Positions 523 through 49,385 of a DNA stretch of 51,438 bases are shown here, piece by piece. The notes beneath the pieces were generated by a model. It had not been told where the DNA came from, did not search any database, and was given only the letters and a program-made list of their open reading frames with translations. Both the position numbers and the translations under genes were made by a program. Position 1 is the stretch's first letter. The number at the start of each line of letters is the position of its first letter. The stretch comes from a phage: sequence record PZ754631.1; one strand, 5' to 3'.

Positions 523-2090
523 TGCTGATTTGGGAAGACTTAACAGCGGCGCAAAAACGCGCCATTAAGGAAATGAGCGAATATTCATTCGAAAAGATGA
601 TCCGCATTTGGTTTCAACTTCTCCAGGGGCAAAGGTTCTTAGGAAACTGGCATTTCAGTTACCTATGCAGCGAAGTTGAAAAAATAATCAAAGGCGAGTC
701 ACAGAACGTAATTTTCAACATAACGCCAGGCAGTGGTAAAACAGAGATATTCTCGATCCACATGTCACCTTATGCGTCATTGAAAAGTAAGAAGGTGAGA
801 AATCTTAATTTGTCGTTTAGTGATGGCCTTGTACAGCAGAATAGCAACCGCATCAAAGAGATTATTGGTTCTCCAGAGTGGCAGGAGCTATGGCCTGGAA
901 AGCTGGCAAAGGCGAGCGCAAAGGATTTGATTGTAACCGATGGCGGCAAGGTTAAATTACAAGTTAACTCGCGCTCTATCGGAGGTCAGGTTACTGGTCT
1001 GCGTGGCGGCTACATGGACGATGGTTTTACTGGTATGTTGGTTCTTGATGATCCAGACAAGCCGGATGACATGCTTTCTAAGGTGAAGCGCGAAGCCGGA
1101 CACATGCGCCTAAAGAACACGGTGCGATCGCGTCGAATGAAGGACACCACGCCAATCGTAATGGTCCAGCAACGGCTACACGTCAATGATTCAACATGGT
1201 TCATGACAAACGGCGGCATGGGCGGCATCCAGTTTAAGGTGGTTAGTATTCCTGCGCTCGTTACTAAGGAATATCGCGAAACGCTTCCTGACTGGTTAAA
1301 GCCTGAGTTTGATCGCGATGTTTTGTCCAGTAAGCCGGTGATGATTGATGGTGTTGCTCATTATTCGTTCTGGCCTGCTAAGGAAAGCGCGGAGGAATTA
1401 CTTGCACTTCGAAATGCTGATCCGTACACATTCGCTAGTCAGTATCAGCAACAGCCTGTTGCGCTTGGCGGTAACGTGTTTAAAACAGAGTGGTTTCAGT
1501 ATTACGGCAGCAGCGAGAAATGCACGCTACCAAAACCGGATCGCTTTGAATATACATTTATCACTGTTGATACCGCACAGAAAACAGGGGAGCTTAACGA
1601 CTACTCAGTGATCTGTTATTGGGGGATGTATAAAGATCGTGTCTACTTCATTGATGGCGTTCGCGGAAAATGGGAAGCACCGGACCTTGAGACGAATTTT
1701 GTTGCATTCGTTAATCAGTGCTGGAAGCGCAATAAAGAATGCGGAACGTTGCGAAGGATTCATGTTGAAGATAAGTCATCTGGCACTGGCTTGATTCAGA
1801 GTGCAGCGAAAAAAATCATGATCAAGATCAATCCCGTTCAGCGCGATAAAGACAAGGTTACTCGCGCAATGGACGCAGCGCCAGTAATGCGCGCCGGACG
1901 CGTAGCACTTCCAGAATCACATCCTATGCTGGCTGAGATACTAGCTGAAGTTGCGGCGTTTACATTCGATGATAGCCATCCTCATGATGATATTGTTGAT
2001 AACATCATTGATGCGGTTAACATTGAAATGAACATGGCAGATGATCCGGTTGGAAGAATGAAAAAATTGGCAGGTTTGCGGAACAAATAG
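522..2090 (+). CDS. terL: terminase large subunit
   Basis: 522 aa; Walker A-like PGSGKT and Walker B-like VLDDPD ATPase motifs, C-terminal nuclease-like region; position before portal. Confidence 0.85.
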   Translation: MLIWEDLTAAQKRAIKEMSEYSFEKMIRIWFQLLQGQRFLGNWHFSYLCSEVEKIIKGESQNVIFNITPGSGKTEIFSIHMSPYASLKSKKVRNLNLSFSDGLVQQNSNRIKEIIGSPEWQELWPGKLAKASAKDLIVTDGGKVKLQVNSRSIGGQVTGLRGGYMDDGFTGMLVLDDPDKPDDMLSKVKREAGHMRLKNTVRSRRMKDTTPIVMVQQRLHVNDSTWFMTNGGMGGIQFKVVSIPALVTKEYRETLPDWLKPEFDRDVLSSKPVMIDGVAHYSFWPAKESAEELLALRNADPYTFASQYQQQPVALGGNVFKTEWFQYYGSSEKCTLPKPDRFEYTFITVDTAQKTGELNDYSVICYWGMYKDRVYFIDGVRGKWEAPDLETNFVAFVNQCWKRNKECGTLRRIHVEDKSSGTGLIQSAAKKIMIKINPVQRDKDKVTRAMDAAPVMRAGRVALPESHPMLAEILAEVAAFTFDDSHPHDDIVDNIIDAVNIEMNMADDPVGRMKKLAGLRNK

Positions 2091-2120
2091 CACGAATCGA
2101 CAAACCAATATATAATCAAA

Positions 2121-5331: not shown

Positions 5332-5844
5332 ATGGCTACAATTGGAGCAAGTTATTTTGCTGTAATGTCTCGTGCGTTACCTGGTCAGGTTTCTGACACT
5401 TCAGCTTATAATATTGATGGCGCTTGTGTTCTTGAGAATGCGGCAGGCAATCAGAATAAGTCTGTTTTTGTTGGTGTGGCGGTCCAGCATGGCGGCGTTG
5501 ATGCGATGGGTAATAAACTGATCAAGCCTATGGCGGCAAGCGGCAAGGCTTACGGCGTTGCAATTCGATCTCACTTTCAGACAACTTCGTCTGACGGTCG
5601 AATGATTTATGAATCTGGCGGCGGAATCAACGTAATGACTGAGGGGCGTGTTTGGATGTTGGCTAAAGACGCCACCGCGCCAGCGTTCGGCACTACAATC
5701 AAGCTGTCTGATGATGGTCAGGTTGATACAGGGTCTGGCACTATCGAAACAAACTGGATCGCAACTGGTGACTTTACCGAGTTTCAAGGCTTGAAGCTGG
5801 TAGAGGTTCAGGTGCAAAAAGTTCCGGCAGTTTCTGCTAGTTAA
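5332..5844 (+). CDS. head-associated structural protein, paralog 1 (decoration/cement-like)
   Basis: 170 aa; shares pattern GVAVQ..G.VWML..G..I.L..DG with the next gene; followed by intrinsic terminator. Confidence 0.5.
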   Translation: MATIGASYFAVMSRALPGQVSDTSAYNIDGACVLENAAGNQNKSVFVGVAVQHGGVDAMGNKLIKPMAASGKAYGVAIRSHFQTTSSDGRMIYESGGGINVMTEGRVWMLAKDATAPAFGTTIKLSDDGQVDTGSGTIETNWIATGDFTEFQGLKLVEVQVQKVPAVSAS

Positions 5845-5851
5845 TAAATAT

Positions 5852-5876
5852 GGCGCTCACTGAGCGCCTTTTTTAT
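5852..5876 (+). terminator. intrinsic terminator
   Basis: GGCGCTCA/TGAGCGCC stem plus TTTTTT. Confidence 0.6.
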
Positions 5877-5889
5877 ATTTGGAGTTATC

Positions 5890-6324
5890 ATGAGTGATTA
5901 TTCAGTCATTGTTGGCGCTGAGTCGCCAGGGTGCATGGTCGATTCTTCAATAATGGTGATTAACGGATCTTTCGTGTGCGGAGATGAATTTATTGCGCCA
6001 GGTAAGATTGTGCGACTATCACATATAACAAATGGATACAAAATAGCAAGTGTTAATGGGGATCTAGTTATTGGCGTGGCAGTAAGGCCGCCGGACTCGT
6101 GCATATATGAGGAGGGTGATACCGTTAATGTGGTTAGTAGAGGTAGTGTGTGGTGCTTAACTTCTGAGAGCGAAGCGCCAGAATATGGAGATAAAGTATT
6201 TGTAACTCAAGATGGAGATGCGGCATACAGTGAAGGAGACTTGCTGATTGGTTGGATCTTTACTGGCGAACATGTAAAGGTTGATCATGATTCATATATT
6301 GTCGGGGTAAGCATTAGCGCATAA
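5890..6324 (+). CDS. head-associated structural protein, paralog 2
   Basis: 144 aa; same motif order as 5332-5844 (IGVAVR..G.VWCL..G.KVFV.QDG); immediately upstream of major capsid gene. Confidence 0.5.
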   Translation: MSDYSVIVGAESPGCMVDSSIMVINGSFVCGDEFIAPGKIVRLSHITNGYKIASVNGDLVIGVAVRPPDSCIYEEGDTVNVVSRGSVWCLTSESEAPEYGDKVFVTQDGDAAYSEGDLLIGWIFTGEHVKVDHDSYIVGVSISA

Positions 6325-6407
6325 CACAAAATTATGTTGCACGTTTAACAAAAAATGCTATCATTGGGGCGTTACATACTAACGGCCTTTATATATGGAG
6401 GAAGAAA

Positions 6408-7382
6408 ATGGAAAAAGAAAAATTTGATCAGCTAGATGCGGATATTGTTTCTAGCTATCTAGCTACTCGCGGCGTTAAGGGTGATGCTTCTGATATGGGT
6501 ATCTGGACGGCGCAAGAGCTTCACAAGATCCGCTCAACTGCTTACGAGAAAGAGTATCCGGCAGGTTCGGCACTTCGTGTGTTCCCTGTAACTAATGAGC
6601 TTTCTGATACTGATAAAACTTTTGAATACCAGATGTTTGATAAAGTTGGTTACGCAAAAATTATTGCTGATTACACCGACGATCTGCCGACCGTTGACGC
6701 GCTGATGTCTAGCGAATTTGGTAAAGTGTTCCGCTTGGGTAACGCGTTCTTGATCTCCATTGACGAAATCAAGGCTGGTCAGCGTACTGGTAAGAGCCTT
6801 TCCACTCGCAAGGCAAACGCAGCGCAAAACGCTCATGATCAGGAAGTTAACCGCCTGGTGTTTAAGGGTTCAAAGCCGCATAAGATTCTTTCGGTGTTTG
6901 AACACCCTAACCTGACAAAGATCGTGTCAACTGGCTGGTTAAGTGCTGATGAAAACACTAAGTTCCCGCAGGCAGCATCTGATGAACTGGAAAAGGCTAT
7001 TGAAACCATTCAGACCATCACCAATGGTCAGCACCGAGCAACCAACATCCTGATTCCGCCGTCTATGCGCAAGGTTCTTTCCGTTCGAATGGAAAACACC
7101 ACTGAAAGTTATCTGGAATACTTCCAGAAACAAAACAGCGGAATCACCATTGACTCAATCGCAGAGCTTGAGGATATTGATGGCGCAGGAACGAAAGGTT
7201 GCCTGGTATATGAGAAAGACCCGATGAACATGTCGATCGAAATTCCAGAAGCATTTAACATGCTTCCTGCGCAACCAAAAGATCTGCATTTCAAAGTTCC
7301 GTGTACTTCAAAATGTACTGGCCTGACGATTTACCGTCCGTTTACGCTAGTGCTTATTACTGGCTTGAAAAAATCAGGTTAA
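6408..7382 (+). CDS. major capsid protein
   Basis: 324 aa; strong RBS GGAGG; flanked by intrinsic terminators (hallmark of highly expressed capsid gene); position in head module. Confidence 0.8.
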   Translation: MEKEKFDQLDADIVSSYLATRGVKGDASDMGIWTAQELHKIRSTAYEKEYPAGSALRVFPVTNELSDTDKTFEYQMFDKVGYAKIIADYTDDLPTVDALMSSEFGKVFRLGNAFLISIDEIKAGQRTGKSLSTRKANAAQNAHDQEVNRLVFKGSKPHKILSVFEHPNLTKIVSTGWLSADENTKFPQAASDELEKAIETIQTITNGQHRATNILIPPSMRKVLSVRMENTTESYLEYFQKQNSGITIDSIAELEDIDGAGTKGCLVYEKDPMNMSIEIPEAFNMLPAQPKDLHFKVPCTSKCTGLTIYRPFTLVLITGLKKSG

Positions 7383-7395
7383 TCGTATAACATTG

Positions 7396-7425
7396 GGGAA
7401 TCCTTAACTGGATTCCCTTTTTTAT
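7396..7425 (+). terminator. intrinsic terminator after major capsid gene
   Basis: GGGAATCC-loop-GGATTCCC stem plus TTTTTT. Confidence 0.65.
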
Positions 7426-7438
7426 TGGAGGTTATGAA

Positions 7439-7711
7439 ATGGCTAAAGAAAAAACTGTAACGCTAAAGGTTTCCGGCGTGTGCCTTATCATTGTTGATGG
7501 TGAGCATTATCATCCAGGCAAAGAGTTTGACGTAGAAGAATCAAAATTGAAAACAAGCGCGTTTGAATATCTAATTGCAAAAGGCGATCTGGAGGTTAAA
7601 GACAACTCCGCATTGAACGAAGAAATCAAACAGAGCGCAGCAAGCAAACGTAAAAAAGATCCGCGAGAGGGCAAGAGCAAAGCCGAACTTGAAGACGGCG
7701 GCATCTATTAA
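7439..7711 (+). CDS. hypothetical head-module protein
   Basis: 90 aa ORF with RBS GGAGG between two hairpin terminators. Confidence 0.5.
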
Positions 7712-7758
7712 TAAAGAGGGCGCTTATAGCGCCCTTTGTCATATCTGGAGGAAACACA

Positions 7759-8175
7759 ATGGTTGATGAATTTTTCACTGACGCAGAAATCACGCAGCAA
7801 ATCGTGAAATTAGCTCCACCGATGAAACAGATTGATCCAGATTTAATGGTGGCATGGATTGATCTGGCAAAGGAATTTGTTTGCAAGAAGCGGTTTAAAG
7901 AATCATATCCCAAAGCGGTTGCTCTTTATACGTTGCACCTTATGACGCTTGACGGAGCCATGAAGCAAGAGGGGGAAAGCGTAGAAAGTTACTCGCGGCG
8001 AGTTGCGTCATTTTCCCTGACTGGTGAATTTAGCCAGACATTTGATCGCGTGTCCGGCGATTCAAGCGGAAAAGAGATTAGACAAACTCCGTGGGGCAAA
8101 ATGTATGAGACGTTAAATAGAAAAAAAGGCGGTGGATTTGGCCTTGTGACTGGATTTCGGAGGCGCTGCAAATGA
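7759..8175 (+). CDS. head-tail connector/adaptor-like protein
   Basis: 138 aa; position between capsid and neck genes; RBS GGAGG. Confidence 0.45.
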
Positions 8176-8543
8176 ACTATAACGAGATCGCAAGAATGGC
8201 AACCGAAGGAATTAACTTCTTTAGTGATGGCAACGGTGAGTTTAAGTGCATAACGCAGCGTGGAAGCGTTGAAATCATCGGAGGCGAAGAAGTAGAAAAG
8301 CCAGAGATTAGTGTAATGATTAATGGTTTAATTAGATCACCCAAAGTCCGAGAGGTTGACGGCGAGACAATACGAGTAACCGATAAGTTGGGAGTTTTTA
8401 ACAATAAAGTTGAAATTAAGAACGGGTATCATATTGATGTTGATGGTGAATTATATGTTGTAGTTGAAGCAAGACCAATCAGGCAAACCAATGTCACTGT
8501 TGCTTATCGGCCTATTTTGAGAAGGATTTCTGTACATGGCTAA
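8172..8543 (+). CDS. head-tail joining (neck) protein
   Basis: 123 aa; translationally coupled (ATGA overlap) to neighbours in neck module. Confidence 0.45.
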
Positions 8544-8979
8544 AAACTACACGATAAGGGAATTTCACGGCAACATTGATGCGTGGATAAACGCCATTGA
8601 TAATGGCCTGAAAGATTGCGTTGAGTTGTTCGCCGAAAAAGTGCATACAGATCTTGTTAAGCGTTCTCCGGTTGATACTGGGCGTTACCGTGCAAACTGG
8701 CAGGTAACAGCAAACAAGCCGCCATTGTATGCGCTTAACCAGTACGATAAGCACGGAGACAAAACGATCGCGGAAGGCAAGCGCGCCATATACGCGATTT
8801 TACGAGGTGGCGGCGCAGTAAGAGCCATTTATTTTTCTAACATGCTTATTTATGCTAACGCGCTTGAGTACGGTCATTCAAAACAAGCGCCAGCGGGTGT
8901 GCTTGGTATTGTTGCCGTGAAATTGCGTTCATATATGGCTGAGGCAATAAAAGAGTCGAGGGCAAAAAATGCACTATGA
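8536..8979 (+). CDS. HK97 gp10-like neck/tail component
   Basis: 147 aa; contains SPVDTGRYRANW resembling the HK97 gp10 family signature. Confidence 0.6.
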   Translation: MAKNYTIREFHGNIDAWINAIDNGLKDCVELFAEKVHTDLVKRSPVDTGRYRANWQVTANKPPLYALNQYDKHGDKTIAEGKRAIYAILRGGGAVRAIYFSNMLIYANALEYGHSKQAPAGVLGIVAVKLRSYMAEAIKESRAKNAL

Positions 8980-9367
8980 ATTAATGCTATCGGCGCGTAA
9001 GGCGCTGGCGACTGAATACGAAAGCAGATTCATGATCGCTTATGAAAACGTAGAGTTTACGCCACCTGGTGACGGTTCGCCGTGGTTGAAGTTTGACTAT
9101 TCCGAAGTTGACACAGAATACTTGTCATTAGATCGCAAATGCGTTTCTTATATCGGAATGATTCAGGTTGGCATTGTGTTTCCACCAGGTTACGGAACTG
9201 ACAGGCCGCGCGTTCTCGCTAAAGAGATTGCGAAATTCTTTTACGATGGTAAAATGTTGGAGCATGGTTATATATATGAGGGTGCAAGAGTTCACAAGCC
9301 GCTCAAGAGTGAAAGCGGTTGGATTCTCCCAATAAGGTTTTATGTTCGAATTGAAACAAAGGAGTAA
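8969..9367 (+). CDS. tail completion / tail terminator-like protein
   Basis: 132 aa immediately upstream of major tail protein; overlapping start. Confidence 0.4.
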   Translation: MHYELMLSARKALATEYESRFMIAYENVEFTPPGDGSPWLKFDYSEVDTEYLSLDRKCVSYIGMIQVGIVFPPGYGTDRPRVLAKEIAKFFYDGKMLEHGYIYEGARVHKPLKSESGWILPIRFYVRIETKE

Positions 9368-9372
9368 AAATT

Positions 9373-10035
9373 ATGCATTTACCAAATGGATCGCAAATTT
9401 TCGTTGAGAGCAATCGAGACAGCGAAATCCAAGCAACAGCAGTGTCAAACGCCAAAGATCCTGTTTTCACTGTTGCATCTGGCGGCGCTGCGTACAAGAA
9501 AGGTGATTATGTGATCATCACTGCGTCTTCTTGGGGTAAGCTGATTGATCGTGTTATGCGTGTAAAGGCTAACGGTGAAGAAACAAGCGTAACGCTTGAG
9601 GGCGTTGATACGTCTGATACTAACGCGTTCCCTACTGGCGGCACAGCGTCTTTTGCAAAAATCAGCGCATGGACTGAGATCCCTTGCATTCAGGATTTGT
9701 CGCAGGAAGGAGGCGAACAGCAATACTATACTTATCAGTGTTTGGCAGACGACCAGGAACAGCAGTTACCTACCTATACGAGCGCCGTTTCTCTGACCTA
9801 CACTTTTGCGCACGAATACGATAACGCGATCTATCCGTTACTTCGTACAGCAGATGAATCAAACGCTGTAACAGCGCTTCGCATGTATATACCAAAAGCA
9901 AAAGAGATGCGTTGCTGGGCTGGTGTCCTTTCGTTTAACGAAATCCCGCAGACCACAGTTAACGAAATGGAAACTGTTTCCCTGTCTGTATCCCTGAAAG
10001 GTCGATTCACCTTTCTACCTTCTCAAGTAGCATAA
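9373..10035 (+). CDS. major tail (tube) protein
   Basis: 220 aa; position before chaperone/frameshift pair; followed by strong intrinsic terminator. Confidence 0.75.
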   Translation: MHLPNGSQIFVESNRDSEIQATAVSNAKDPVFTVASGGAAYKKGDYVIITASSWGKLIDRVMRVKANGEETSVTLEGVDTSDTNAFPTGGTASFAKISAWTEIPCIQDLSQEGGEQQYYTYQCLADDQEQQLPTYTSAVSLTYTFAHEYDNAIYPLLRTADESNAVTALRMYIPKAKEMRCWAGVLSFNEIPQTTVNEMETVSLSVSLKGRFTFLPSQVA

Positions 10036-10040
10036 TCACA

Positions 10041-10064
10041 AGGGGCGTTGCGCCCCTTTTTTTG
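10041..10064 (+). terminator. intrinsic terminator after major tail gene
   Basis: AGGGGCG-TTG-CGCCCCT plus T7. Confidence 0.7.
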
Positions 10065-10134
10065 TTACTGTACAATCATGATACACGATTCATAATCAAT
10101 TCTTTTAACAAAAAGTGCTATCAAGGAGAAAGAA

Positions 10135-10452
10135 ATGTCAAAAATGAAATTGACGATTGGGCCGCTTCCTGACTTTAAATTACCAGTGAAATTTGCAATG
10201 CCTAACGGAGAAGATCAAACAATTATCTTCACAGTTCGCCACCGCAAAACAAGTGAGATTCACGAGCGCTACACGTCAGATACTCCAATGAGCGATGTTG
10301 AAATGATCACCTTCCTTGCTTCTGGTTGGAATCTTGATGATGAATTTAACGAAGAAAATATTAAACAGCTTCTTGATTACTACCCAGCAACAGCAATCGG
10401 ATTAACTAGCGCATACATGAAAGCGCTTGCTGGGCAGCGAGTAAAAAACTAA
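10135..10452 (+). CDS. tail assembly chaperone (lambda G-like)
   Basis: 105 aa; ends at stop directly after slippery heptamer AAAAAAC; position before tape measure. Confidence 0.8.
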   Translation: MSKMKLTIGPLPDFKLPVKFAMPNGEDQTIIFTVRHRKTSEIHERYTSDTPMSDVEMITFLASGWNLDDEFNEENIKQLLDYYPATAIGLTSAYMKALAGQRVKN

Positions 10453-10763
10453 AAAGGGCGGTTTACCTGTTTTATCAGAAACCGCCGACAGATGCAGAGC
10501 TTGAGGCTGTTGGCCTTACAAGGGCAGACTATGAAGGAGAAGATCCGCCAGAGGTTATATTTGATGAAAGCATGATGCAATCATGGGATATATTTTGCGC
10601 AATGCAAACGCAATGGAGATGTTCAGGCGGTGGCGCTTACGGATTTGATTATAATGTCTTGCCTATGCTTTTTGAGATTTACAAGGTTGAGGATCGCGAG
10701 ATGGCGCTAAACGACTTGCGAATCATGGAGCAAAAAGCACTTGAAATGATGCATTCAAAATAA
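10135..10763 (+). CDS. tail assembly chaperone -1 frameshift fusion (lambda G-T like)
   Basis: -1 frame is open from the slippery site at 10443-10449 through 10763 with no stop; downstream stem-loop. Confidence 0.7.
10443..10488 (+). other. programmed -1 ribosomal frameshift site: slippery A_AAA_AAC + stop + stem-loop
   Basis: heptamer AAAAAAC 10443-10449, in-frame TAA 10450-10452, 8-bp stem GGCGGTTT/AAACCGCC at ~10457-10486. Confidence 0.7.
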
Positions 10764-14651: not shown

Positions 14652-15382
14652 TGATTAGTGCAAAGATAAAACTTGAAATAATGCAGCACGTAAAAGATGA
14701 ATACCCGCGCGAGGCGTGCGGGGTTATCACTCAAAAGTCGCGGGTACAGAAATATCACCGCATAACAAACGTGCATGATGATCCTGAAAATCATTTTGAG
14801 ATGGGCGCAACTGAATACGTTGAGGCGTGTGAAAGCGGTGAGCTTATTGCTGTTGTGCATAGCCACACAGGAGACGGGGCAAGTACAATTCCAAGCGCCC
14901 ATGACACATGCATGTGTGATGAAATGGGTGTTTCATGGGTTATTGTGTCATGGCCCGAAGGTGATATGAGAATAATTGAGCCTGAATCTCGTCCTCTGAT
15001 TGGTCGCCCGTGGTCGCTTGGGGCGTATGATTGCTGGGGGCTTATTATGGCATGGCACAAGCAACATGGCGTTATCCTGAATGATTTCAGGAAACCATAT
15101 GAATGGTGGAAGCCTGAGCACGGCGAAAATCTTTACCAGGAAAATTATCTGAAAGAGGGTTTTGTTGAAACAGGAGAGCCGCCAAAACCTGGTGATATGG
15201 TTATCTTTCAGCTTTCCGCGCCAGTGTGGAATCATGCAGGCATTTATCTTGGAAACAATCAGTTGCTTCATCATGCCTTTGGCAAGTTGTCAAGGGTTGA
15301 TTTGTATTCTGGATGGTATCAGGAACATGCAAAAATGGTTTGTAGACATAAGGATCTGAAATATGACTTTGAAGGTAATTAA
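14651..15382 (+). CDS. tail assembly protein (lambda K-like; JAB/MPN + NlpC/P60)
   Basis: JAMM-like motif HSHTGDGAS..D and a Cys/His peptidase-like C-terminal half; TGATG coupling to upstream gene. Confidence 0.7.
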   Translation: MISAKIKLEIMQHVKDEYPREACGVITQKSRVQKYHRITNVHDDPENHFEMGATEYVEACESGELIAVVHSHTGDGASTIPSAHDTCMCDEMGVSWVIVSWPEGDMRIIEPESRPLIGRPWSLGAYDCWGLIMAWHKQHGVILNDFRKPYEWWKPEHGENLYQENYLKEGFVETGEPPKPGDMVIFQLSAPVWNHAGIYLGNNQLLHHAFGKLSRVDLYSGWYQEHAKMVCRHKDLKYDFEGN

Positions 15383-16039: not shown

Positions 16040-19000
16040 ATGGCTGAAAATATGATAACGGGCAGTAAGGGTGGATCATCAAAACCTTATGTGCCGAAAG
16101 AGATGGAAGATAACCTGATCTCAATCAACAAAATCAAAATCCTTCTTGCCGTTTCCGATGGTGAGTGCGATCCATATTTCACGCTTCGCGATCTGTATCT
16201 CGATGATGTTCCGGTAATTGCAGATGATGGAACTGTTAACTATCAGGGTGTGAAAGCTGAATTTCGACCTGGAACGCAGACGCAAGATTACATCCAGGGG
16301 TTTACTGACACATCAAGCGAAGTGACGCTGGCGCGTGACATTACTACATCAAATCCTTATGTAATTTCTGTAACCAACAAAACATTGTCGGCTATCAGAA
16401 TAAAAATGCTAATGCCAACAGGCATTAAGCAAGAGGATAACGGCGATCTTGTAGGTGTTAAGGTCACTTATGCTGTTGATATGGCTGTTGACGGAGACTC
16501 TTACAAAGAAGTATTGCGAGACACCATCGAAGGTAAAACACGTTCAGGTTACGACAGAAGCCGAAGGATTGACCTTCCGGCATTTAATGATCGTGTATTA
16601 CTTAGGGTTAGAAGGGTTACGGCAGACAGCGCATCTTCTCGCGTTACTGATCTGATTAAGCTACAAAGTTACGCTGAGGTTATTGATGCAAAATTCCGTT
16701 ATCCTCTGACTGGTCTTGTATACGTTGAATTTGACAGTGAGTTGTTCCCTAACCAGATCCCTAACATTTCAATCAAGAAGAAATGGAAGTTGATTAATGT
16801 TCCGAGCAATTACGATCCGGTAATGCGAGAGTATCACGGTTCATGGAATGGTACGTTCAAGAAAGCGTGGTCGAACAATCCGGCGTGGGTACTTTATGAC
16901 ATTATCACAAACCAGCGATACGGATTAGATCAGCGAGAACTTGGTGTGCAGGTTGACAAATGGAGTCTTTACGAAGCGGCGCAATACTGCGATCAGAAAG
17001 TACCGGACGGAAAAGGCGGCACAGAGCCGCGTTATCTATGTGATGTTGTTATTCAGAGTCAGATTGAGGCTTATCAGCTTATTCGTGACATTTGCTCTAT
17101 CTTCCGTGGAATGAGCTTTTGGAATGGCGAGAGCTTGTCAATCGTTATTGATAAGCCGCGCGATCCGTCGTACATCTTCACCAATGACAACGTTGTTGAT
17201 GGTGATTTTCAGTACACAACAGCAAGCGAAAAGAGCATGTACACGCAGTGCAACGTGACGTTTGACGACGAACAAAACATGTATCAACAGGACGTAGAGG
17301 GCGTATTCGACACAGAGGCCGCATTGCGCTTTGGATACAATCCGACAAGCATAACAGCGATCGGATGTACACGCAGGAGTGAGGCTAATCGGCGCGGTCG
17401 ATGGATACTAAAAACCAACTTGCGCAGCACTACGGTAAACTTTGCTACTGGACTGGAAGGCATGATCCCATCAATAGGTGATGTGATTGCTATTGCTGAC
17501 AACTTTCACAGCAGCAACCTGAAGTTAAACCTATCAGGGCGCGTGATGGAAGTTTCCGGCTTACAGGTATTCGTTCCGTTTAAGATTGATGCTAGACCAG
17601 GTGATTTCATTATCATCAACAAGCCGGACGGAAAGCCAGTTAAGCGCACAATCTCAAAAGTAAGCGGTGACGGAAAAACCATTGAGCTAAACATCGGGTT
17701 TGGATTTGAAGTTAAACCGGACACGGTTTTTGCAATCGACCGCGCCGATATTGCTTTGCAGCAATACGTTGTAACGAGTATCGGCAAAGGTGATGATGAT
17801 GATGAATTTACATACTCCATCACGGCTGTTGAATATGACCCGAACAAATACGACGAGATTGATTATGGAGTAAACATTGACGACAGGCCAACCTCAATTG
17901 TCCAGCCTGACACAATGGCAGCGCCTGAAAATGTGCAAATATCCTCATACTCGCGAATTGTCCAGGGTGCAAGCGTTGAAACAATGGTTGTGTCGTGGGA
18001 TAAAGTACCTTACGCATCGCTGTATGAAATGCAATGGCGAAAAGGTGATGGCAACTGGCTGAATACACCACAGACTGCAAACAAAGAAATTGAGGTTGAA
18101 GGTATTTATTCAGGAAACTACCAGGTAAGGGTTAGATCTGTTTCCGCTTCAGGTTCTACGTCTCCGTGGTCCAGAATTGTGACAGCATCACTGACTGGTA
18201 AGGTGGGAGAGCCAGGCGCGCCAGTTAACTTAACCGCATCCGACAATGAAGTGTTTGGCATTCGTGTTAAGTGGGGGATGCCAGAAGGGAGCGGAGATAC
18301 GGCATACATTGAGCTTCATCAGTCGCCGGATGGAACGGCTGAAAACTCAAGCCTGCTAACGCTGATCCCGTATCCACAATATGAATACTGGCACGGTACG
18401 CTTCCGGCTGGTCATGTTGTCTGGTATAGAATCCGCAGCGTTGACAGAATCGGCAACGTTTCCGGCTGGACTGATTTTGTTAGAGGCATGGCTTCAGATG
18501 ATGTGGAGGCTGTTTTAGGTGATATTCTTGATAAGATTTTTGATACAGAAGCAGGCAAGGATCTGAAAGAGAACGCCATTGACAGTGCAAACAAGATAAA
18601 GGACCAGGCGCAAGCAATCATCCAGAATGCCCTTGCTAATGATGCTGATATTAAGTGGACGCGAGTACAAAACGGAAAGAGAAAGGCTGAATATGGTCAC
18701 GCTCTTGAGCTTATAGCCACAGAGACTGAGGCGCGAGTGACGCAGATTGAAGAGTTGAGGGCGTCAATCGACGAGGATATTGTTTCAAGCATAAAGACAG
18801 TGCAGGAGGCTATCGCCACAGAATCTGAAACGCGAGCAACTCAAATAAATGCTTTGGATTCAAAATTTACAACTGAAATTGACGGCGTAAAACGCAATAC
18901 AGCAGCAAGCATTAATCAGGTGAATCAAACCATTGCTAATGAGTCAGAAGCGCGCGCGCAGGCCGTTAACGCTCTTGATGCGAAGTTCACAAAGGAGATC

Positions 19001-20899: not shown

Positions 20900-20943
20900 A
20901 CTATACACGATCTTGCGGTGGGCGTTTAGCAAAAAGTGCTATT
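20900..20943 (-). promoter_or_regulatory. early promoter cassette (minus) driving Cor-like lipoprotein
   Basis: on minus strand AATAGCACTTTTTGCTAAA, 19-bp spacer, TATAGT. Confidence 0.5.
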
Positions 20944-21038
20944 CTTGTTCTTTTTGTTATCCGGTGTTCTCAAATCTGCGGAGTCTTAAATTTAGCTCAA
21001 AAAGTGAACAACAATAGAGCGCAATACATACAGATAAA

Positions 21039-29008: not shown

Positions 29009-29062
29009 ATGCACCTCAAACAAAAAGCCTGACAGATGATAACATCATGCCAGGCATTGTTT

Positions 29063-29536
29063 TTAGCAATTAGTGCTTTCAGGTTTATACAGGAATCCGC
29101 CAGGTTCATAATCTGACATTCTTACCACTCGCAACATTTCACGCTTATCACATCTCTTTGTGAGCGGTTTACCATTGGAATCAAATCGCAGGTCTGGACG
29201 GCAGAATGAAGCGCGATAGCCTTGACAGCCATATTTTTTGTAATCGTTATGCACCTTTTGAGCGCCAGCGGCTGAAATCATACCGCGAACGCGCCACTGA
29301 TTTACAGTTTGCTGGCTAACGTTAAGACGCTTTGCCATTGCTGACACGCTGCCGTAATACTCAATAAGAATGTCAAGCCGTGCTTTTAGTCCGGCGCGCA
29401 CTTCATCTTTTAAAACATAGTATCCTGTAGGGCGCTTGCGCTTCTTCTTATCCTTCCCTCGTCGAGTTCCGTTGTTTCCATTAATTGTGCGCTTGTCAAT
29501 CTTGCCAGTTGATACTGCGATTCGCTGTTCTTTCAT
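29063..29536 (-). CDS. HTH DNA-binding protein (Cro/CI-type)
   Basis: 157 aa; basic N-terminus and HTH-like segment MAKRLNVSQQTVNQWRVRGMIS. Confidence 0.6.
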   Translation of the reverse strand: MKEQRIAVSTGKIDKRTINGNNGTRRGKDKKKRKRPTGYYVLKDEVRAGLKARLDILIEYYGSVSAMAKRLNVSQQTVNQWRVRGMISAAGAQKVHNDYKKYGCQGYRASFCRPDLRFDSNGKPLTKRCDKREMLRVVRMSDYEPGGFLYKPESTNC

Positions 29537-29548
29537 TATTCATTCTCC

Positions 29549-29592
29549 AATAGCATTTTTTGTTAAACGATGATTTAATGATTGTGTATTAT
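29549..29592 (+). promoter_or_regulatory. early promoter cassette driving helicase operon
   Basis: AATAGCATTTTTTGTTAAAC, 18-bp spacer, TATTAT. Confidence 0.5.
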
Positions 29593-29625
29593 ACACGCCA
29601 AATGGCATTACTCAAAGGTTTTAGA

Positions 29626-31671: not shown

Positions 31672-32077
31672 TAAAGGCGATTATCTGGAGTTTTACGAAA
31701 GAGATCCGACGGATACGCTAAAAGAGGAATCTCACCAGATCGGGGCGTTTCAATGGTTAACTTATGCTCATCCTGAATTTCTTGCCTGGCATACTAAAAA
31801 TGAGGGTGACAAGGGGATCGCCACGGCAATGATGGATCAGCAAGCCGGACTAGTTAAGGGCGTAAGTGATTTTATCATCCTGATTGGATTAAAAGGCCGT
31901 TACCCTTTCGCGGCTATTGAGATGAAACGCGTCAATAAGTCTGGCAAGGGTAAGGCTTCACCAGTCAGCAAGGAGCAAAAAGCCTTCTTGCGCCGTGTGC
32001 GTGAGCTTGGCGGATTCGCTGCCGTAACATACGGATATAAGCAATTCATGATCGCAGTAGAATACATGATGAAATAG
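31658..32077 (+). CDS. VRR-NUC domain nuclease
   Basis: PD-(D/E)XK-like GVSDFIIL...AAIEMK motif; stop TAG embedded in promoter module. Confidence 0.6.
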   Translation: MAMTDKGDYLEFYERDPTDTLKEESHQIGAFQWLTYAHPEFLAWHTKNEGDKGIATAMMDQQAGLVKGVSDFIILIGLKGRYPFAAIEMKRVNKSGKGKASPVSKEQKAFLRRVRELGGFAAVTYGYKQFMIAVEYMMK

Positions 32078-32117
32078 CACTTTTTGTTAAAACAGGCGCG
32101 AAGGATTGCGCCATAAT
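32072..32117 (+). promoter_or_regulatory. early promoter cassette (stop codon embedded)
   Basis: AAATAGCACTTTTTGTTAAAAC, 19 bp with GC hairpin, CATAAT. Confidence 0.5.
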
Positions 32118-32857: not shown

Positions 32858-33115
32858 ATGCAGAAAGAAAGAAGAGTTTTACTTAATGAAGATGGCGAAT
32901 TTCTTTTGTATCGCGCTATGGTATGCGATGCACTTGATAAAAACCCTAACGTGAAAAAGATGATTGATTGCGATCCGTGGGAATTTTCAAGCGCATTAGA
33001 TATGAGCTTTGAGGAGACAAAAAAACTCCCGCTTGAAAAATGGCACGAACAAATCAGAAATGACATGCAAGAATTTGTCGATTCCTGGAATTTTCAGAAC
33101 GGAATGATCCAATAA
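32858..33115 (+). CDS. hypothetical protein
   Basis: 85 aa ORF coupled to dam; followed by promoter module. Confidence 0.5.
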   Translation: MQKERRVLLNEDGEFLLYRAMVCDALDKNPNVKKMIDCDPWEFSSALDMSFEETKKLPLEKWHEQIRNDMQEFVDSWNFQNGMIQ

Positions 33116-33158
33116 TAGCACTTTTTGTTAAAACGCCCGGCCTTGTGTCGGGCATAAT
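33114..33158 (+). promoter_or_regulatory. early promoter cassette
   Basis: AATAGCACTTTTTGTTAAAAC, 19 bp hairpin spacer, CATAAT. Confidence 0.5.
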
Positions 33159-38193: not shown

Positions 38194-38239
38194 ATAATAC
38201 CGCACCAATGCTACCCGCATTTAACAAAAAATGCTATTT
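38194..38239 (-). promoter_or_regulatory. early promoter cassette (minus) driving P-loop ATPase gene
   Basis: minus strand AAATAGCATTTTTTGTTAAAT, ~19 bp, TATTAT. Confidence 0.45.
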
Positions 38240-38455: not shown

Positions 38456-38838
38456 TTATACATAGCCTCAAACAAATGACATCCACCAGCGGAAAATCCA
38501 ACTTCTTCGCGGTATAGCGTCCAGCGGTCGCCAGCCTCATCAAACACATAACCAGCAACAGCGCCAAGCGCGCGGCCTTGCTCAATCTGGTAGCGCTTTC
38601 CTTCTTTGAAATGCTTTTTGCACGGAATCTTGTGATCTACAAAGGTGCATTTAATTGTTTTTGTTTTGATATGACGATAGTCAGACTCAACAGCGTTTTG
38701 CCACTTGCTACCCTTTGTAATGTTCTTTACCTGGAATTGCTCCAACTCGATCACATCATTGCTACCAGCAATTTTTTCGTATACAGCTTTATAACGACCG
38801 TTCATCAAAACGTTGGTTTTATTGCAGATAACTTTCAT
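38452..38838 (-). CDS. hypothetical protein
   Basis: 128 aa; RBS AAGGAG; preceded by promoter module. Confidence 0.55.
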   Translation of the reverse strand: MKVICNKTNVLMNGRYKAVYEKIAGSNDVIELEQFQVKNITKGSKWQNAVESDYRHIKTKTIKCTFVDHKIPCKKHFKEGKRYQIEQGRALGAVAGYVFDEAGDRWTLYREEVGFSAGGCHLFEAMYK

Positions 38839-38869
38839 CGTTTATTTCTCCTTTCGTTTCGGTGAGTTG

Positions 38870-38915
38870 ATTATGCCAGGCTTTTACACCTGGCTTTTAA
38901 CAAAAAGTGCTATTT
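38870..38915 (-). promoter_or_regulatory. early promoter cassette (minus)
   Basis: minus strand AAATAGCACTTTTTGTTAAAA, 19 bp hairpin (GCCAGG..CCTGGC), CATAAT. Confidence 0.5.
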
Positions 38916-39620
38916 TGCGTTTGCTTCAAAGACTGCGCGAGCAAAACCGCGCGGAGTGAGGGAGCGGATCATCTTTGTGCGAGATGATTTTCCGCCAGTT
39001 TTGGCCCAACCTGGATTATCCTTGTCGCCATCTTTAGGAATGATTGTTGCGCGCGGAGGAATAACAAATCCGTTTCCAGTCCAAAGGCATGTTTTCTTAA
39101 AGTACCGATCCCGCGCCGGAATAATATCAGGGAAGTCGGGATGCTTATCATCTTCCGGCAGATAGCCAGCATAATCGCACGGATGGAACGTATAATCAGG
39201 CTTTCGCCATAACGTTGACAACTTGCCAACCGGATTTTCGATCATGTAAGGAACACCGAAATAATCAGCTATATCAGCCGCGATCCTGCAAGTGTCGGCG
39301 GCCTCATCCTGGAATGATGGATTCTCAAGGCGCTTTTTGGCCCAATGGCGAGATCCGCTATTTGCAAGGTCGGTGCACGGCGGAAATGCCATAATAAAGT
39401 CAGGAATACCCCATTCCTCACAGCGCGCGCGGTGGTAAAATATTTCATCAATCCAGACGTTAACGTATTCGATATTCTCATGCTGTATGCGCACTGAGTG
39501 GTAATCACCGTGATCAGCATCATCGTAATTAAAGCAAATGCATTTATATCCAGCACCAGCCCAATCTTTAACGGCTTTACCAGATCCATCAAACAAAGAG
39601 AAAATTAAACCCTTATACAT
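38910..39620 (-). CDS. compact C5-cytosine methyltransferase-like protein
   Basis: motif I-like LFDGSG, motif IV-like FPPCTDLANSG (Cys present, Q replaced by T), motif VI-like ENPVG, motif IX-like LTPRGFARAV; 236 aa, no obvious target-recognition domain. Confidence 0.55.
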   Translation of the reverse strand: MYKGLIFSLFDGSGKAVKDWAGAGYKCICFNYDDADHGDYHSVRIQHENIEYVNVWIDEIFYHRARCEEWGIPDFIMAFPPCTDLANSGSRHWAKKRLENPSFQDEAADTCRIAADIADYFGVPYMIENPVGKLSTLWRKPDYTFHPCDYAGYLPEDDKHPDFPDIIPARDRYFKKTCLWTGNGFVIPPRATIIPKDGDKDNPGWAKTGGKSSRTKMIRSLTPRGFARAVFEANAK

Positions 39621-40281: not shown

Positions 40282-40326
40282 AATATACCAATCAGGCGCA
40301 TACCGGTTTTAACAAAAAGTGCTATT
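40282..40326 (-). promoter_or_regulatory. early promoter cassette (minus)
   Basis: minus strand motif, 19 bp, TATATT. Confidence 0.5.
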
Positions 40327-40787: not shown

Positions 40788-40831
40788 AATGTACAGGAAC
40801 ACGAGGATTGAGTTTTAACAAAAAGTGCTAT
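40788..40831 (-). promoter_or_regulatory. early promoter cassette (minus)
   Basis: minus strand motif, 19 bp, TACATT. Confidence 0.5.
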
Positions 40832-41925: not shown

Positions 41926-41971
41926 AATGTACCCGATCAGGATGATTCAGTTTTAACAAAAAGTGCTATTT
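41926..41971 (-). promoter_or_regulatory. early promoter cassette (minus), first of leftward arm
   Basis: minus strand motif, 19 bp, TACATT; RBS and ATG of gene 41887. Confidence 0.5.
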
Positions 41972-43098: not shown

Positions 43099-43362
43099 AT
43101 GGTTATGATGAAAATTCGCAAAGCAACAGATGATTTCATTCGCAGTAATGCGGAAAGCGGTCGCCTGTATGTTGCATTCGTGGAACGCAAGAGAAAGCGC
43201 GGAAAGATCGTTGCGACTGAGCGGTTATTCAAGATGAAGCCGAGAAATGAATGCGAATGCAAAAAGGATTCCGGTTTTTACTTCGGATGCTGTTGCAGCA
43301 CGATAGAAAACGCGCGAATGCTTATAGATGAAGGAAAAGTATACTTCAATCCGGCAGAATAG
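43099..43362 (+). CDS. hypothetical Cys-rich protein
   Basis: 87 aa; CECKK...GCCCS cluster; stop TAG embedded in promoter motif. Confidence 0.5.
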   Translation: MVMMKIRKATDDFIRSNAESGRLYVAFVERKRKRGKIVATERLFKMKPRNECECKKDSGFYFGCCCSTIENARMLIDEGKVYFNPAE

Positions 43363-43402
43363 CACTTTTTGTTAAAACGCCAGGCGCAAAGCCTGGCATA
43401 AT
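43358..43402 (+). promoter_or_regulatory. early promoter cassette (stop codon embedded)
   Basis: AATAGCACTTTTTGTTAAAAC, 19 bp hairpin GCCAGG..CCTGGC, TG-n-CATAAT. Confidence 0.55.
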
Positions 43403-43821: not shown

Positions 43822-43865
43822 ATAGCACTTTTTGTTAAAACGCCAATCTGAAAACCTGGCATAAT
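43820..43865 (+). promoter_or_regulatory. early promoter cassette
   Basis: AATAGCACTTTTTGTTAAAAC, 19 bp, CATAAT. Confidence 0.5.
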
Positions 43866-44356: not shown

Positions 44357-44402
44357 GAATAGCATTTTTTGTTAAAACTCAAAAACGATAACCAGGCATA
44401 AT
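44357..44402 (+). promoter_or_regulatory. early promoter cassette
   Basis: GAATAGCATTTTTTGTTAAAAC, 19 bp, CATAAT. Confidence 0.5.
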
Positions 44403-45362: not shown

Positions 45363-45405
45363 ATAGCACGAATTGTTAAAACTCAAATGTGGGGTCAGGT
45401 ATAAT
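45361..45405 (+). promoter_or_regulatory. early promoter cassette
   Basis: AAATAGCACGAATTGTTAAAAC, 18 bp, TATAAT. Confidence 0.5.
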
Positions 45406-46541: not shown

Positions 46542-46698
46542 ATTCCTGGGTAGTGACTGCGAGGAAGTCAACGAATGTTTCACCGCTGGCAAGCGTTATC
46601 ATGCCGATGTGTCGAGTGCTGGCAATTACTTTGTGTACGACGACCACGGCAGCACCTGGGCCATTGATCCAGATGATGATGATTTTTCGGTTGAATAG
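46519..46698 (+). CDS. hypothetical small acidic protein (59 aa)
   Basis: below track threshold; RBS GGAGG; stop TAG embedded in promoter motif, as for other early genes. Confidence 0.45.
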   Translation: MMQSTVIKFLGSDCEEVNECFTAGKRYHADVSSAGNYFVYDDHGSTWAIDPDDDDFSVE

Positions 46699-46738
46699 CA
46701 CTTTTTGCAAAAACAGATTATCGGGCTTGCGGTATAGT
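46695..46738 (+). promoter_or_regulatory. early promoter cassette
   Basis: AATAGCACTTTTTGCAAAAAC, 19 bp, TATAGT. Confidence 0.5.
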
Positions 46739-47033: not shown

Positions 47034-47215
47034 TTTGGTTACTTGTATTTTTAGTGGTTTTCTTTTATATTTCAGGATTATTCATCTTCCGCGCATTGGT
47101 TAAAGAGTGTGATTGCACTGATAAAGATCAGCCTCTTGTTCTGATATTCTGGTTTGTGTGGTTTTGGGTGGCGTTTTACCAGATTGTGCGGGATGAAAGC
47201 GGCTTTAAGTGGTGA
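47030..47215 (+). CDS. small membrane protein (2 TM)
   Basis: 61 aa, two hydrophobic segments; ATGA coupling. Confidence 0.5.
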   Translation: MIWLLVFLVVFFYISGLFIFRALVKECDCTDKDQPLVLIFWFVWFWVAFYQIVRDESGFKW

Positions 47216-47409: not shown

Positions 47410-48000
47410 ATGAAACGCGACATTATCATTCTTAACGGACCGCCAGGAGTTGGCAAAGATACGCTTGCGGCATACTTAACGGGTCATCGTTACGCAGCGG
47501 TTAAAGCGTCATTTAAACAGCCTATGTTCGATATTGCATTCTCCATGCTTGGCGTTTTCCGATATGACGAGTTCATTGATCTGTATAACGACCGTGAGCA
47601 GAAAGAAAAGCCTCAAGCAATCTTGCAAGGTAAGTCTCCGCGACAATTCATGATCTGGATTAGCGAAGAAGTCATGAAGCCAGCTTTTGGCGAGCAATAT
47701 TTTGGGAATCGCATGGTTGAGCAAGTACACGAGATGTACAGAGATTTAGCTGTTGTAATTAGTGATGGCGGATTCCCTGAAGAAATCAAGCCGCTCGTTA
47801 AGGCGGGCCATGAAGTTCACATTTGCCGACTGCATCGCGAAGGATTCACGTTTGATGGCGATTCGCGAAACTATATTGACCTGAGCGGATACCATCACCG
47901 CGTCAAGCATTACGACTTCACAATGACTGATGGCGAGCCAGAAAAGACTGTTGACGAGATCATCAAAACTGTCCAGTGGAAACACATTAAGATCAAATAG
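47410..48000 (+). CDS. P-loop kinase (dNMP kinase-like)
   Basis: N-terminal IIILNGPPGVGKDT P-loop resembling phage deoxynucleoside monophosphate kinases; RBS GGAGG. Confidence 0.6.
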   Translation: MKRDIIILNGPPGVGKDTLAAYLTGHRYAAVKASFKQPMFDIAFSMLGVFRYDEFIDLYNDREQKEKPQAILQGKSPRQFMIWISEEVMKPAFGEQYFGNRMVEQVHEMYRDLAVVISDGGFPEEIKPLVKAGHEVHICRLHREGFTFDGDSRNYIDLSGYHHRVKHYDFTMTDGEPEKTVDEIIKTVQWKHIKIK

Positions 48001-48040
48001 CACGAATTGCTAAAAGCGGGGCGCAATGCCTCGCTATAAT
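47995..48040 (+). promoter_or_regulatory. early promoter cassette
   Basis: AAATAGCACGAATTGCTAAAAG, 19 bp hairpin, TATAAT. Confidence 0.5.
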
Positions 48041-49342: not shown

Positions 49343-49385
49343 TAGCACTTTTTGTTAAAACTTCCGCGAGGGCATTTGTTAAAGT
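49341..49385 (+). promoter_or_regulatory. early promoter cassette (weaker -10)
   Basis: AATAGCACTTTTTGTTAAAAC, 19 bp, TAAAGT. Confidence 0.4.

Follow-up and report, generated by a model that had tools for sequence, protein, structure and literature searches.

Introduction

The marbox is an activator box of the kind bound by MarA, SoxS and Rob, monomeric regulators with two helix-turn-helix motifs, and its published degenerate pattern is gcannwwntgnnaaa (PMC12052159). Here we compare with the known marbox promoters a 21-nucleotide repeat in the genome of a T1-like siphovirus (Drexlerviridae, Hanrivervirus; sequence record PZ754631.1), the full 51,438 nucleotides of which we call the window. 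Our subject is two copies of this repeat that stand reversed before late genes, one upstream of the major capsid gene and one upstream of the gene for the tape-measure chaperone.

RamA is a marbox-binding regulator in Klebsiella. In E. coli, micF is the class II promoter of the Rob and SoxS complexes determined by cryo-electron microscopy, and the absence of a -35 hexamer is characteristic of class II marbox promoters. The box of the rob promoter reportedly lies backwards, between the -35 and -10 hexamers. MarA and SoxS repress rob (PMC12282887). At pbpG a box in the spacer represses, and at lpxC a single box overlaps promoter P1 and activates P2 from the class II position (PMC12052159). At flgBP2, MarA activates by distorting base pairing (PMC12781870).

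The repeat itself has been described before. The genome paper on phage TLS reported 21 copies of aaATAGCACnnnTTGnTAAAA, gave its direct repeats the names DR1–DR18, noted similar repeats in T1, Rtp and Rogue1, and described the repeats as oriented with transcription; their function it left undecided, with a stoperator, an enhancer site and an UP element as suggestions (PMC11447400). Its supplementary table places DR7 on the minus strand (15044..15024), just before the capsid gene, and makes no comment on it (PMC11447400). The TLS repeats are the same element as the 21-mer of the window, and DR7 is the homologue of our capsid copy. The TLS paper does not discuss the reversed copy, the -10 hexamer at a fixed 20-nucleotide gap or the match to the marbox (PMC11447400). 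Thus the element was already known, whereas its marbox identity and the two late-promoter architectures described here appear to be new.

The repeat and the marbox

The late genes of the phage lie on the plus strand at about 1–20 kb and are followed by blocks of early and middle genes on both strands. Escherichia phage KarlJaspers, also of the Drexlerviridae and Hanrivervirus, is about 97% identical to the window and colinear with it (region queried, 5800–10500). The 21-mer occurs 15 times in the window at three mismatches or fewer, against 0.01 occurrences expected from shuffled sequence. Besides a copy at 29548 in a divergent region, only two copies oppose the local genes: GTTTAACAAAAAATGCTATCA at 6343–6363 (plus strand, no mismatches) and TTTTAACAAAAAGTGCTATCA at 10103–10123 (plus strand, one mismatch). 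An earlier note on this DNA had picked out both of them, and they are real, although each begins one base later than the note had it. The remaining copies read ATAGCA..TAAAA in the direction of the local genes, and past these gene-directed copies come a -10-like hexamer at 19 nucleotides from the 21-mer, a ribosome-binding site (RBS) and a start codon.

What the earlier note overlooked is that the motif equals the published marbox. The pattern gcannwwntgnnaaa has 20 exact matches in the window where 1.9 are expected; 19 of the 20 are the repeat, and both reversed copies (6343 and 10103) are exact matches. With a 19-mer marbox consensus that we take to be AYnGCACnnWnnRYYAAAY, the window has 19 matches at no more than one mismatch, against an expectation of 1.2. 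The window copies are also identical at 12–15 of 15 positions to gcactaattgctaaa, the marbox consensus from chromatin immunoprecipitation sequencing (ChIP-seq): all 15 agree at 29062, 14 agree in copies of the GAATT type and 12 in copies of the TTTTT type. The twentieth pattern match, GCACAATCTGGTAAA at 47175–47189 on the minus strand, lacks both an ATA prefix and a canonically spaced -10, and is probably one of the two or so chance matches expected.

The canonical copies also share the geometry of E. coli class II promoters. At micF, the same kind of forward box, with GCAC and YAAA, is followed after exactly 20 nucleotides by the -10 hexamer TAGAAT (GCACTGAATGTCAAA); the box is centred at -41 and there is no -35. 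In a census of 75 exact boxes from four phage genomes (the window, KarlJaspers, T1 and Klebsiella phage Sweeny), TAnnnT stands at a gap of 20 in 42 boxes and at a gap of 19 in a further 7, and most other window copies have CATAAT at a gap of 20. The sequence AAAAnn occupies the -35 position of the canonical copies. Accordingly placed boxes—forward, over the -35 position, centred at about -41, with a -10 and without a -35—are found in the canonical copies and in the leftward promoter at 10103 described below, but not at the 6343 copy, where the leftward hexamer is TATGCG. Unlike micF, these presumptive binding sites do not belong to a host stress regulon but number about 17 within one virulent phage, and the phage has relatives recorded outside the enterobacteria.

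The box is bipartite and non-palindromic, its GCAC and YAAA elements lying one turn of the helix apart. Sites anchored solely on ATAGCA and a -10 still keep the right half TTGnTAAAA, and A14–A16 are retained where a dyad would require TATT. Such asymmetric conservation is as expected for a monomer with two helix-turn-helix motifs. A symmetric dimer site was rejected, since only the core is a pseudo-dyad and symmetry is lost in the flanks and at position 14. Several other candidates were rejected as well. A sigma-54 promoter (-24/-12) has the consensus TGGCAC-N5-TTGC with fixed spacing, whereas the motif, TAGCAC-N3-TTG(C/T), has no GG and is 2 nucleotides too short. UP element, IHF, Fis and CRP sites, compared by eye with their general consensus sequences, misfit in spacing or key bases. 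Less clear-cut is a stoperator of the mycobacteriophage L5 type, for which one expects asymmetric repressor sites within transcribed regions, pointing the way of transcription, and a repressor gene in the phage. The window copies do show an orientation bias; the phage is virulent, and its sole recognisable regulator is Cro-like. Every copy bar the one at 6343 and the probable chance match at 47175 lies at a fixed distance of 19–20 nucleotides from a -10, which argues for a promoter arrangement and not a roadblock.

The capsid promoter

The copy at 6343 provides the spacer and the TG of a conserved rightward sigma-70 promoter, which the earlier note had missed. The features of this region are as follows.

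6322 to 6336, plus strand: A-rich tract upstream of the -35, with a putative UP-element-like role; AAAAA near-invariant in 54 unique sequences
6337 to 6342, plus strand: -35 TTGCAC of the rightward capsid promoter; TTG invariant in nearly all sequences; 16-nucleotide spacer
6343 to 6363, minus strand: reverse 21-mer copy before the major capsid gene; marbox 15-mer GCATTTTTTGTTAAA on the minus strand at 6344 to 6358
6357 to 6364, plus strand: TG (6357 to 6358) and -10 TATCAT (6359 to 6364); TATCAT, TATATT, TATTCT or TATTAT in relatives, with the sixth T always kept
6366 to 6396, plus strand: hairpin with U-rich tail, from folding; predicted start at about 6371, within the 5' arm
6408 to 7382, plus strand: major capsid protein gene

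The 16-nucleotide spacer consists of one base (g) and the reversed 15-mer, and the end of the reversed box, TGCTAT, supplies both TGn and the first half of the -10. A reversed copy is present in 75 of 77 related loci from IMG/VR (capsid protein identity 53–100%), 62–79 nucleotides 5' of the capsid start codon. Across the 54 unique aligned sequences the A-tract, TTG(C/A)(A/C)N, the 16-nucleotide spacer, TG and TATnnT are all conserved; the -35 of relatives reads TTGACC, TTGACG or TTGAAC. The sixth position of the -10 is a constant T at this promoter and variable in the early copies. Judged from these alignments, the 6343 copy sits in the spacer of a predicted rightward sigma-70 promoter with an extended -10. 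Moreover, substitutions between lineages within the capsid box are confined to degenerate marbox positions (for example AAAAA to ATTCG), a pattern that, in the distal half of the box, is not explained by promoter function alone.

This architecture is that of rob. The order TTGCAC, g, reversed 15-mer, TATCAT places a reversed box between sigma-70 -35 and -10 hexamers, and the E. coli rob promoter has CAAAAAATGC directly before TATTAT, in the same register. The rob 13-mer CAAAAAATGCTAT is identical to that of the phage capsid copy, and the GCA end abuts the -10 in both. In its distal half the rob box is a poor match, with 3 mismatches against none in the phage box, and the phage promoter has the better -35 plus an A-tract. 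The box of flgBP2 is likewise reversed, in the spacer and abutting the -10, at -16 to -30 (PMC12781870); that is a sigma-28 promoter at which the outcome is activation, and the phage box lies 3 bp nearer the start (-13 to -27).

Leftward, by contrast with the chaperone copy, there is no promoter to recognise at 6343. The earlier note had seen no conforming -10 in this direction, and the hexamer 19 nucleotides from the 21-mer is indeed TATGCG; the hexamers at the canonical gap (TATGCG, TAGGCG, TAGCAC and similar) have no conserved sixth T, and we rejected a leftward promoter here. Nor does the copy lie directly at the RBS, as had been stated, because the hairpin (6366–6388) and about 35 nucleotides intervene.

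The homologous hairpin of TLS is listed as terminator T35 (PMC11447400). In closer relatives the capsid hairpin starts 2–3 nucleotides past the -10. The capsid (6359–6396) and portal (2111–2148) promoters have in common a terminator-like hairpin starting 1–3 nucleotides past the -10, which places the predicted start inside the 5' arm. Transcripts from either promoter would lack the full stem and so might escape termination, and read-through from upstream would stop.

The chaperone promoter

The region between the major tail gene and the chaperone gene holds two predicted promoters, pointing in opposite directions.

10040 to 10065, plus strand: terminator following the major tail gene; TTGCGC (10048 to 10053), the -35 of the next promoter, lies in its loop and 3' arm
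10071 to 10076, plus strand: rightward -10 TACAAT, 17 nucleotides past TTGCGC
10078 to 10083, minus strand: leftward -10 TATCAT, 20 nucleotides from the 15-mer box
10103 to 10123, minus strand: reverse 21-mer copy before the tape-measure chaperone gene; marbox 15-mer GCACTTTTTGTTAAA on the minus strand at 10104 to 10118
10135 to 10452, plus strand: tape-measure chaperone gene

The 10103 copy is found in about half of the closer relatives, T1 included (T1 position 18833). TATCAT at 10078–10083 does lie at the 19-bp spacing from the 21-mer that the earlier note had given, and its 20-nucleotide gap from the 15-mer is the gap of the canonical copies. The T, the A and the final T of this hexamer are invariant, and its middle bases vary, in 18 unique sequences from several genera including T1. 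This supports the reading of box and TATCAT as a putative class II-type leftward promoter, from which a transcript would run antisense into the major tail gene. The proposal of leftward antisense promoters, made for both copies, is supported by a TA...T conserved across genera at 10103 and not at 6343, where no -10 is conserved.

Abutting the leftward promoter is a conserved rightward one, also overlooked before, with its -10 at 10071–10076. This -10 (TA[ACG]AAT or TAATAT) is kept in lineages that bear the box (17 unique sequences) and in those that do not (12), which indicates that the box and the leftward -10 are an add-on of about 45 nucleotides. The TTG in the terminator loop is constant while the stem covaries, and the terminator was detected on the plus strand only. 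At the capsid and the chaperone promoter the -35 and -10 hexamers, 16 and 17 bp apart in the 16–18 bp range of sigma-70, are conserved among relatives. The starts predicted at the chaperone site lie at about 10083 for the rightward promoter and at about 10071 for the leftward one, near enough for the two open complexes to be expected to compete for the same DNA and exclude one another.

The proposed logic is that of lpxC, where one box serves P1 and P2 (PMC12052159); the 10103 site differs in that its two promoters face opposite ways and their -10 hexamers are adjacent. A design like that of 10103 recurs in the divergent region at 29548–29615, which has real genes on either side. Two further candidates at the chaperone site were rejected: a rightward promoter inside the 10103 copy would be without a -35, and TATCAA and its variants do not end in T; a promoter proposed by a scanner, TGTACA-N16-CATAAT at 10069–10096, is unconserved in relatives.

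Other boxes in the window

The remaining boxes of the window, and the regulator encoded among them, are listed here.

2090 to 2104, plus strand: degenerate forward box (1 mismatch) at the end of the large terminase gene; gap of 6 to TATAAT, then a terminator, then the portal gene
20925 to 20939, minus strand: canonical forward box of the leftward cor gene; -10 at gap 19
29062 to 29076, minus strand: forward box GCACTAATTGCTAAA before the primase gene; 15 of 15 positions as in the ChIP-seq consensus; TATCAT at gap 20
29063 to 29536, minus strand: gene for a Cro-like regulator (T1 gp23 family), a candidate phage-encoded binder
29553 to 29567, plus strand: forward box of the helicase promoter; reversed directly before the regulator RBS on the opposite strand
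29588 to 29615, minus strand: predicted leftward sigma-70-like promoter of the regulator and primase genes; TTGAGT 29610 to 29615, N16, TATAAT 29588 to 29593
32077 to 32091, plus strand: canonical forward box; CATAAT at gap 20
33118 to 33132, plus strand: canonical forward box; CATAAT at gap 20
38220 to 38234, minus strand: canonical forward box; TATTAT at gap 20
38896 to 38910, minus strand: canonical forward box; CATAAT at gap 20
40308 to 40322, minus strand: canonical forward box; TATATT at gap 20
40814 to 40828, minus strand: canonical forward box; TACATT at gap 20
41952 to 41966, minus strand: canonical forward box; TACATT at gap 20
43362 to 43376, plus strand: canonical forward box; CATAAT at gap 20
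43825 to 43839, plus strand: canonical forward box; CATAAT at gap 20
44362 to 44376, plus strand: canonical forward box; CATAAT at gap 20
45366 to 45380, plus strand: canonical forward box, GAATT type; TATAAT at gap 19
46698 to 46712, plus strand: canonical forward box; TATAGT at gap 20
48000 to 48014, plus strand: canonical forward box, GAATT type; TATAAT at gap 20
49345 to 49359, plus strand: canonical forward box; TAAAGT at gap 20

At the portal site (2087–2158) the large terminase stop codon and the forward box overlap, a perfect TATAAT follows 6 nucleotides on and a terminator hairpin begins 1–2 nucleotides later. This is a third geometry, with the box centred near -26. The portal box, degenerate in the window, is exact in most relatives (at about -4320 from the capsid start, loci L001–L037).

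The region at 29548–29615 is a bidirectional module, with TTGAGT-N16-TATAAT leftward for the genes of the Cro-like regulator and the primase and, rightward, an apparently box-dependent promoter for the helicase gene; the two -10 hexamers overlap on opposite strands within GTGTATTATACAC.

A GC-rich hairpin often fills the 20-nucleotide gap between box and -10; many of these hairpins have a GAAA loop (for example CCCGGCGAAAGCCGGG), and the -10 that follows is U-rich. We saw such hairpins at 38830–38915 and at other canonical copies, in T1 at 38956–39001 and in Sweeny at 39498–39560. The T1 record annotates them as rho-independent terminators, so that a promoter appears to enclose the terminator of the gene before it. 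Past the early -10s (for example 38840–38870, minus strand) a leader block is kept that reads CATCGA(A/C)AACGA and then GGAG. It is common to family members recorded on E. coli, Klebsiella and 'Pseudomonas' (T1, Sweeny and Motto), and it might serve as an initial transcribed sequence or enhance translation.

Read in reverse, early copies (33113–33136, 38895–38918, 43354–43377 and 20924–20947) give TGnTATTAT, TGnTATTTT or TGnTATTCT, which resemble extended -10 elements pointing against the genes. Their sixth position is unconserved overall, and they could be weak antisense starts.

Discussion

From the sequence match, the geometry and the conservation, which are observed directly, we infer at roughly even odds (about 0.5) that the repeat is an activator box of marbox type, a target for monomeric, two-helix-turn-helix proteins such as MarA, SoxS and Rob, and that its reversed copies act on late promoters; that estimate takes in binding, the identity of the binder and the sign of regulation. 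Sequence and geometry favour host Rob, MarA or SoxS as the probable binder. The rob gene is present in E. coli, and a search of the phage for a MarA-like gene, by tblastn and with a three-sequence profile, gave nothing better than E = 0.6 (the queries were MarA, SoxS and a verified Rob sequence).

On this reading about 17 copies of the box would build -35-less class II promoters before early and middle genes, to which the box-binding protein would recruit RNA polymerase. At 6343 the box fills the spacer of the putatively strong capsid promoter with its GCA end abutting the -10, so a protein bound there would act on the polymerase; repression is the more likely outcome, and activation by DNA distortion the alternative. 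At 10103 the leftward -10 adjoins the rightward -10 of the chaperone and tape-measure genes, so a polymerase recruited leftward should block rightward initiation, and its transcripts should be antisense to the major tail gene. The late promoters would then be freed once the factor is lost or titrated. The earlier note had offered three options for the reversed copies. The one that fits best is a binding site for a switch factor, here a bipartite, asymmetric box at defined promoter positions that is presumably bound; with it stands the leftward promoter at 10103, while the leftward promoter at 6343 and the leader RNA element found no support.

Lambda CI at PRM/PR and phi29 p4 are phage switch factors, activators at promoters of one class and repressors at those of another. 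They show the same opposite outcomes from one protein, depending on the position of its site, as we propose here; unlike them, the candidate protein would be host-encoded and monomeric, and there is no lysogeny.

Several points weigh against the marbox interpretation. The forward box at the portal gene, with its gap of 6, fits neither placement rule. A reversed box abutting the -10 activates at flgBP2, so the sign of regulation at the capsid promoter could be either. The Webervirus clade of Sweeny (Klebsiella phages) has lost the capsid box, with 3 mismatches, and has perfect early boxes, which makes the capsid copy a dispensable add-on and not an essential part of the promoter; the decayed capsid box of this clade does not track a changed early motif, the early boxes there being canonical. 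A generic promoter scan listed neither late promoter, because TTGCAC and TTGCGC each score only 3/6. In the literature searched we found no binding, transcription-start or expression data for T1-like phages, and no paper connecting them with marboxes.

Two phages from other hosts count against a host factor in particular. Vibrio phage Vc1 has 12 exact boxes and Pseudomonas phage Motto has 17, the capsid copy included in both; they are recorded on Vibrio cholerae and on Pseudomonas aeruginosa PAO1, labels that are possibly unreliable. We know of no MarA, SoxS or Rob in V. cholerae or P. aeruginosa. It follows that the binder is not a host protein of the MarA family, or that the boxes are dispensable there, or that the labels are unreliable; the host-factor reading is weakened unless the labels are wrong or these hosts have an equivalent protein. 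Both genomes have about 45% G+C, yet enterobacterial-type boxes and promoters, and the paper on Motto puts identity, between the two or with a Salmonella phage, at 82–88%. Unless their host range is unusually broad, the recorded hosts should be checked.

Boxes that persist in phages recorded on non-enterobacterial hosts would be easier to explain if the box were the operator of the phage's own Cro-like regulator (T1 gp23 family, 29063–29536) and its marbox likeness coincidence or mimicry. A dimer of this protein would recognise the pseudo-dyad TAGCA-N5-TG(C/T)TA. From about -42, a classic class II position and the centre of the dyad, it would activate the early and middle promoters, and it would occupy the late ones. 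The regulator is conserved throughout the family, Vc1 and Motto included; its central domain, with a single helix-turn-helix, is predicted to have a Cro-like fold (top structural matches Xfaso1 and N15 Cro; predicted local distance difference test score, pLDDT, 84.7); and its gene lies in a divergent promoter region with a box directly before its own RBS, as is often so for autoregulated phage regulators. Nevertheless, we consider this explanation, the main rival, doubtful. Conservation is asymmetric, with C4 and A14–A16 kept where a dyad needs G and TATT, and most window copies carry TGTTA, which breaks the dyad. A match to a host consensus that was derived independently, with a gap equal to that of micF to the base, is hard to obtain by chance, and an activator encoded in the middle of the genome would be needed before nearly all early genes. 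Two further segments of the regulator flank its Cro-like domain in our alignment: upstream, an N-terminal one that is basic and invariant (DKR..NGNNGT.RG.D...R, modelled at low confidence), and downstream a conserved GYRASFCRPDLRFD..NGKP segment; neither matched a known domain.

It is less probable still, and on balance unlikely, that no dedicated factor is involved and RNA polymerase itself reads the motif. It would find an A/T-rich element upstream in the case of the forward copies, and TGn with half a -10 in the case of the reversed capsid copy; both reversed copies would be ordinary promoter sequence that resembles the repeat by chance. A reversed TGCTAT does automatically yield an extended -10 (TGn and TAT), and the TG is kept even where the box has decayed. 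The TLS authors considered a role as UP element (PMC11447400), and E. coli class II marbox promoters can retain factor-independent activity (PMC12052159). Yet the distal half of the box (TTTAAC/TTTAGC, -27 to -22) has no known sigma-70 contact and is conserved all the same, its changes confined to degenerate positions of the marbox. An UP element requires a T-run, which is missing from the GAATT-type copies, the motif lies at -33 to -52 and not at -38 to -59, and the 10103 copy, read rightward, has neither a -35 nor a T at the sixth position.

We give very little credence to an action of the reversed copies in RNA—as leader elements, or as pairing targets for the complementary 21-mer carried by early mRNAs just before their terminators, controlling translation or stability of late messages—for although the 10103 copy lies in the predicted leader directly 5' of the Shine-Dalgarno sequence, and early transcripts reaching the hairpins nested in the next promoter would carry the complement, folding of the leaders (10084–10150 and 6343–6420) gave no structure signal (z-scores -0.31 and -0.82), Rfam had no match to them at gathering score, the proximal capsid promoter would start 3' of the 6343 copy, conservation tracks the degenerate marbox pattern and not exact complementarity, and the conserved leftward -10 at 10103 points to a function at the DNA level.

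How T1-like phages, which have no polymerase or sigma factor of their own, time their expression is the question that these boxes address. We tentatively propose, while thinking it more probably wrong than right in its full form, that the Drexlerviridae time expression by host stress regulators, through about 17 class II promoters, a rob-type capsid operator and a tail promoter opposed by antisense transcription. The switch from early to late would be triggered by decay of unstable MarA and SoxS or by titration of Rob by replicating phage DNA. The reversed copies would then be the points at which the circuit contacts the most highly expressed late genes. Should the binder instead be the phage Cro-like protein, the anatomy would still be that of a one-box regulon with about 20 promoters and three placement rules.

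For a repeat that has had no assigned function so far (PMC11447400), the marbox interpretation is a concrete and cheaply testable hypothesis. It predicts which host proteins are relevant (Rob, MarA, SoxS and RamA), which bases to mutate and which compounds would alter infection (salicylate, paraquat, dipyridyl and bile salts). T1-like phages are common in gut and sewage, are frequent laboratory contaminants and are candidates for therapy; if the proposal is true, their infection would respond to bile salts, oxidants or antibiotics.

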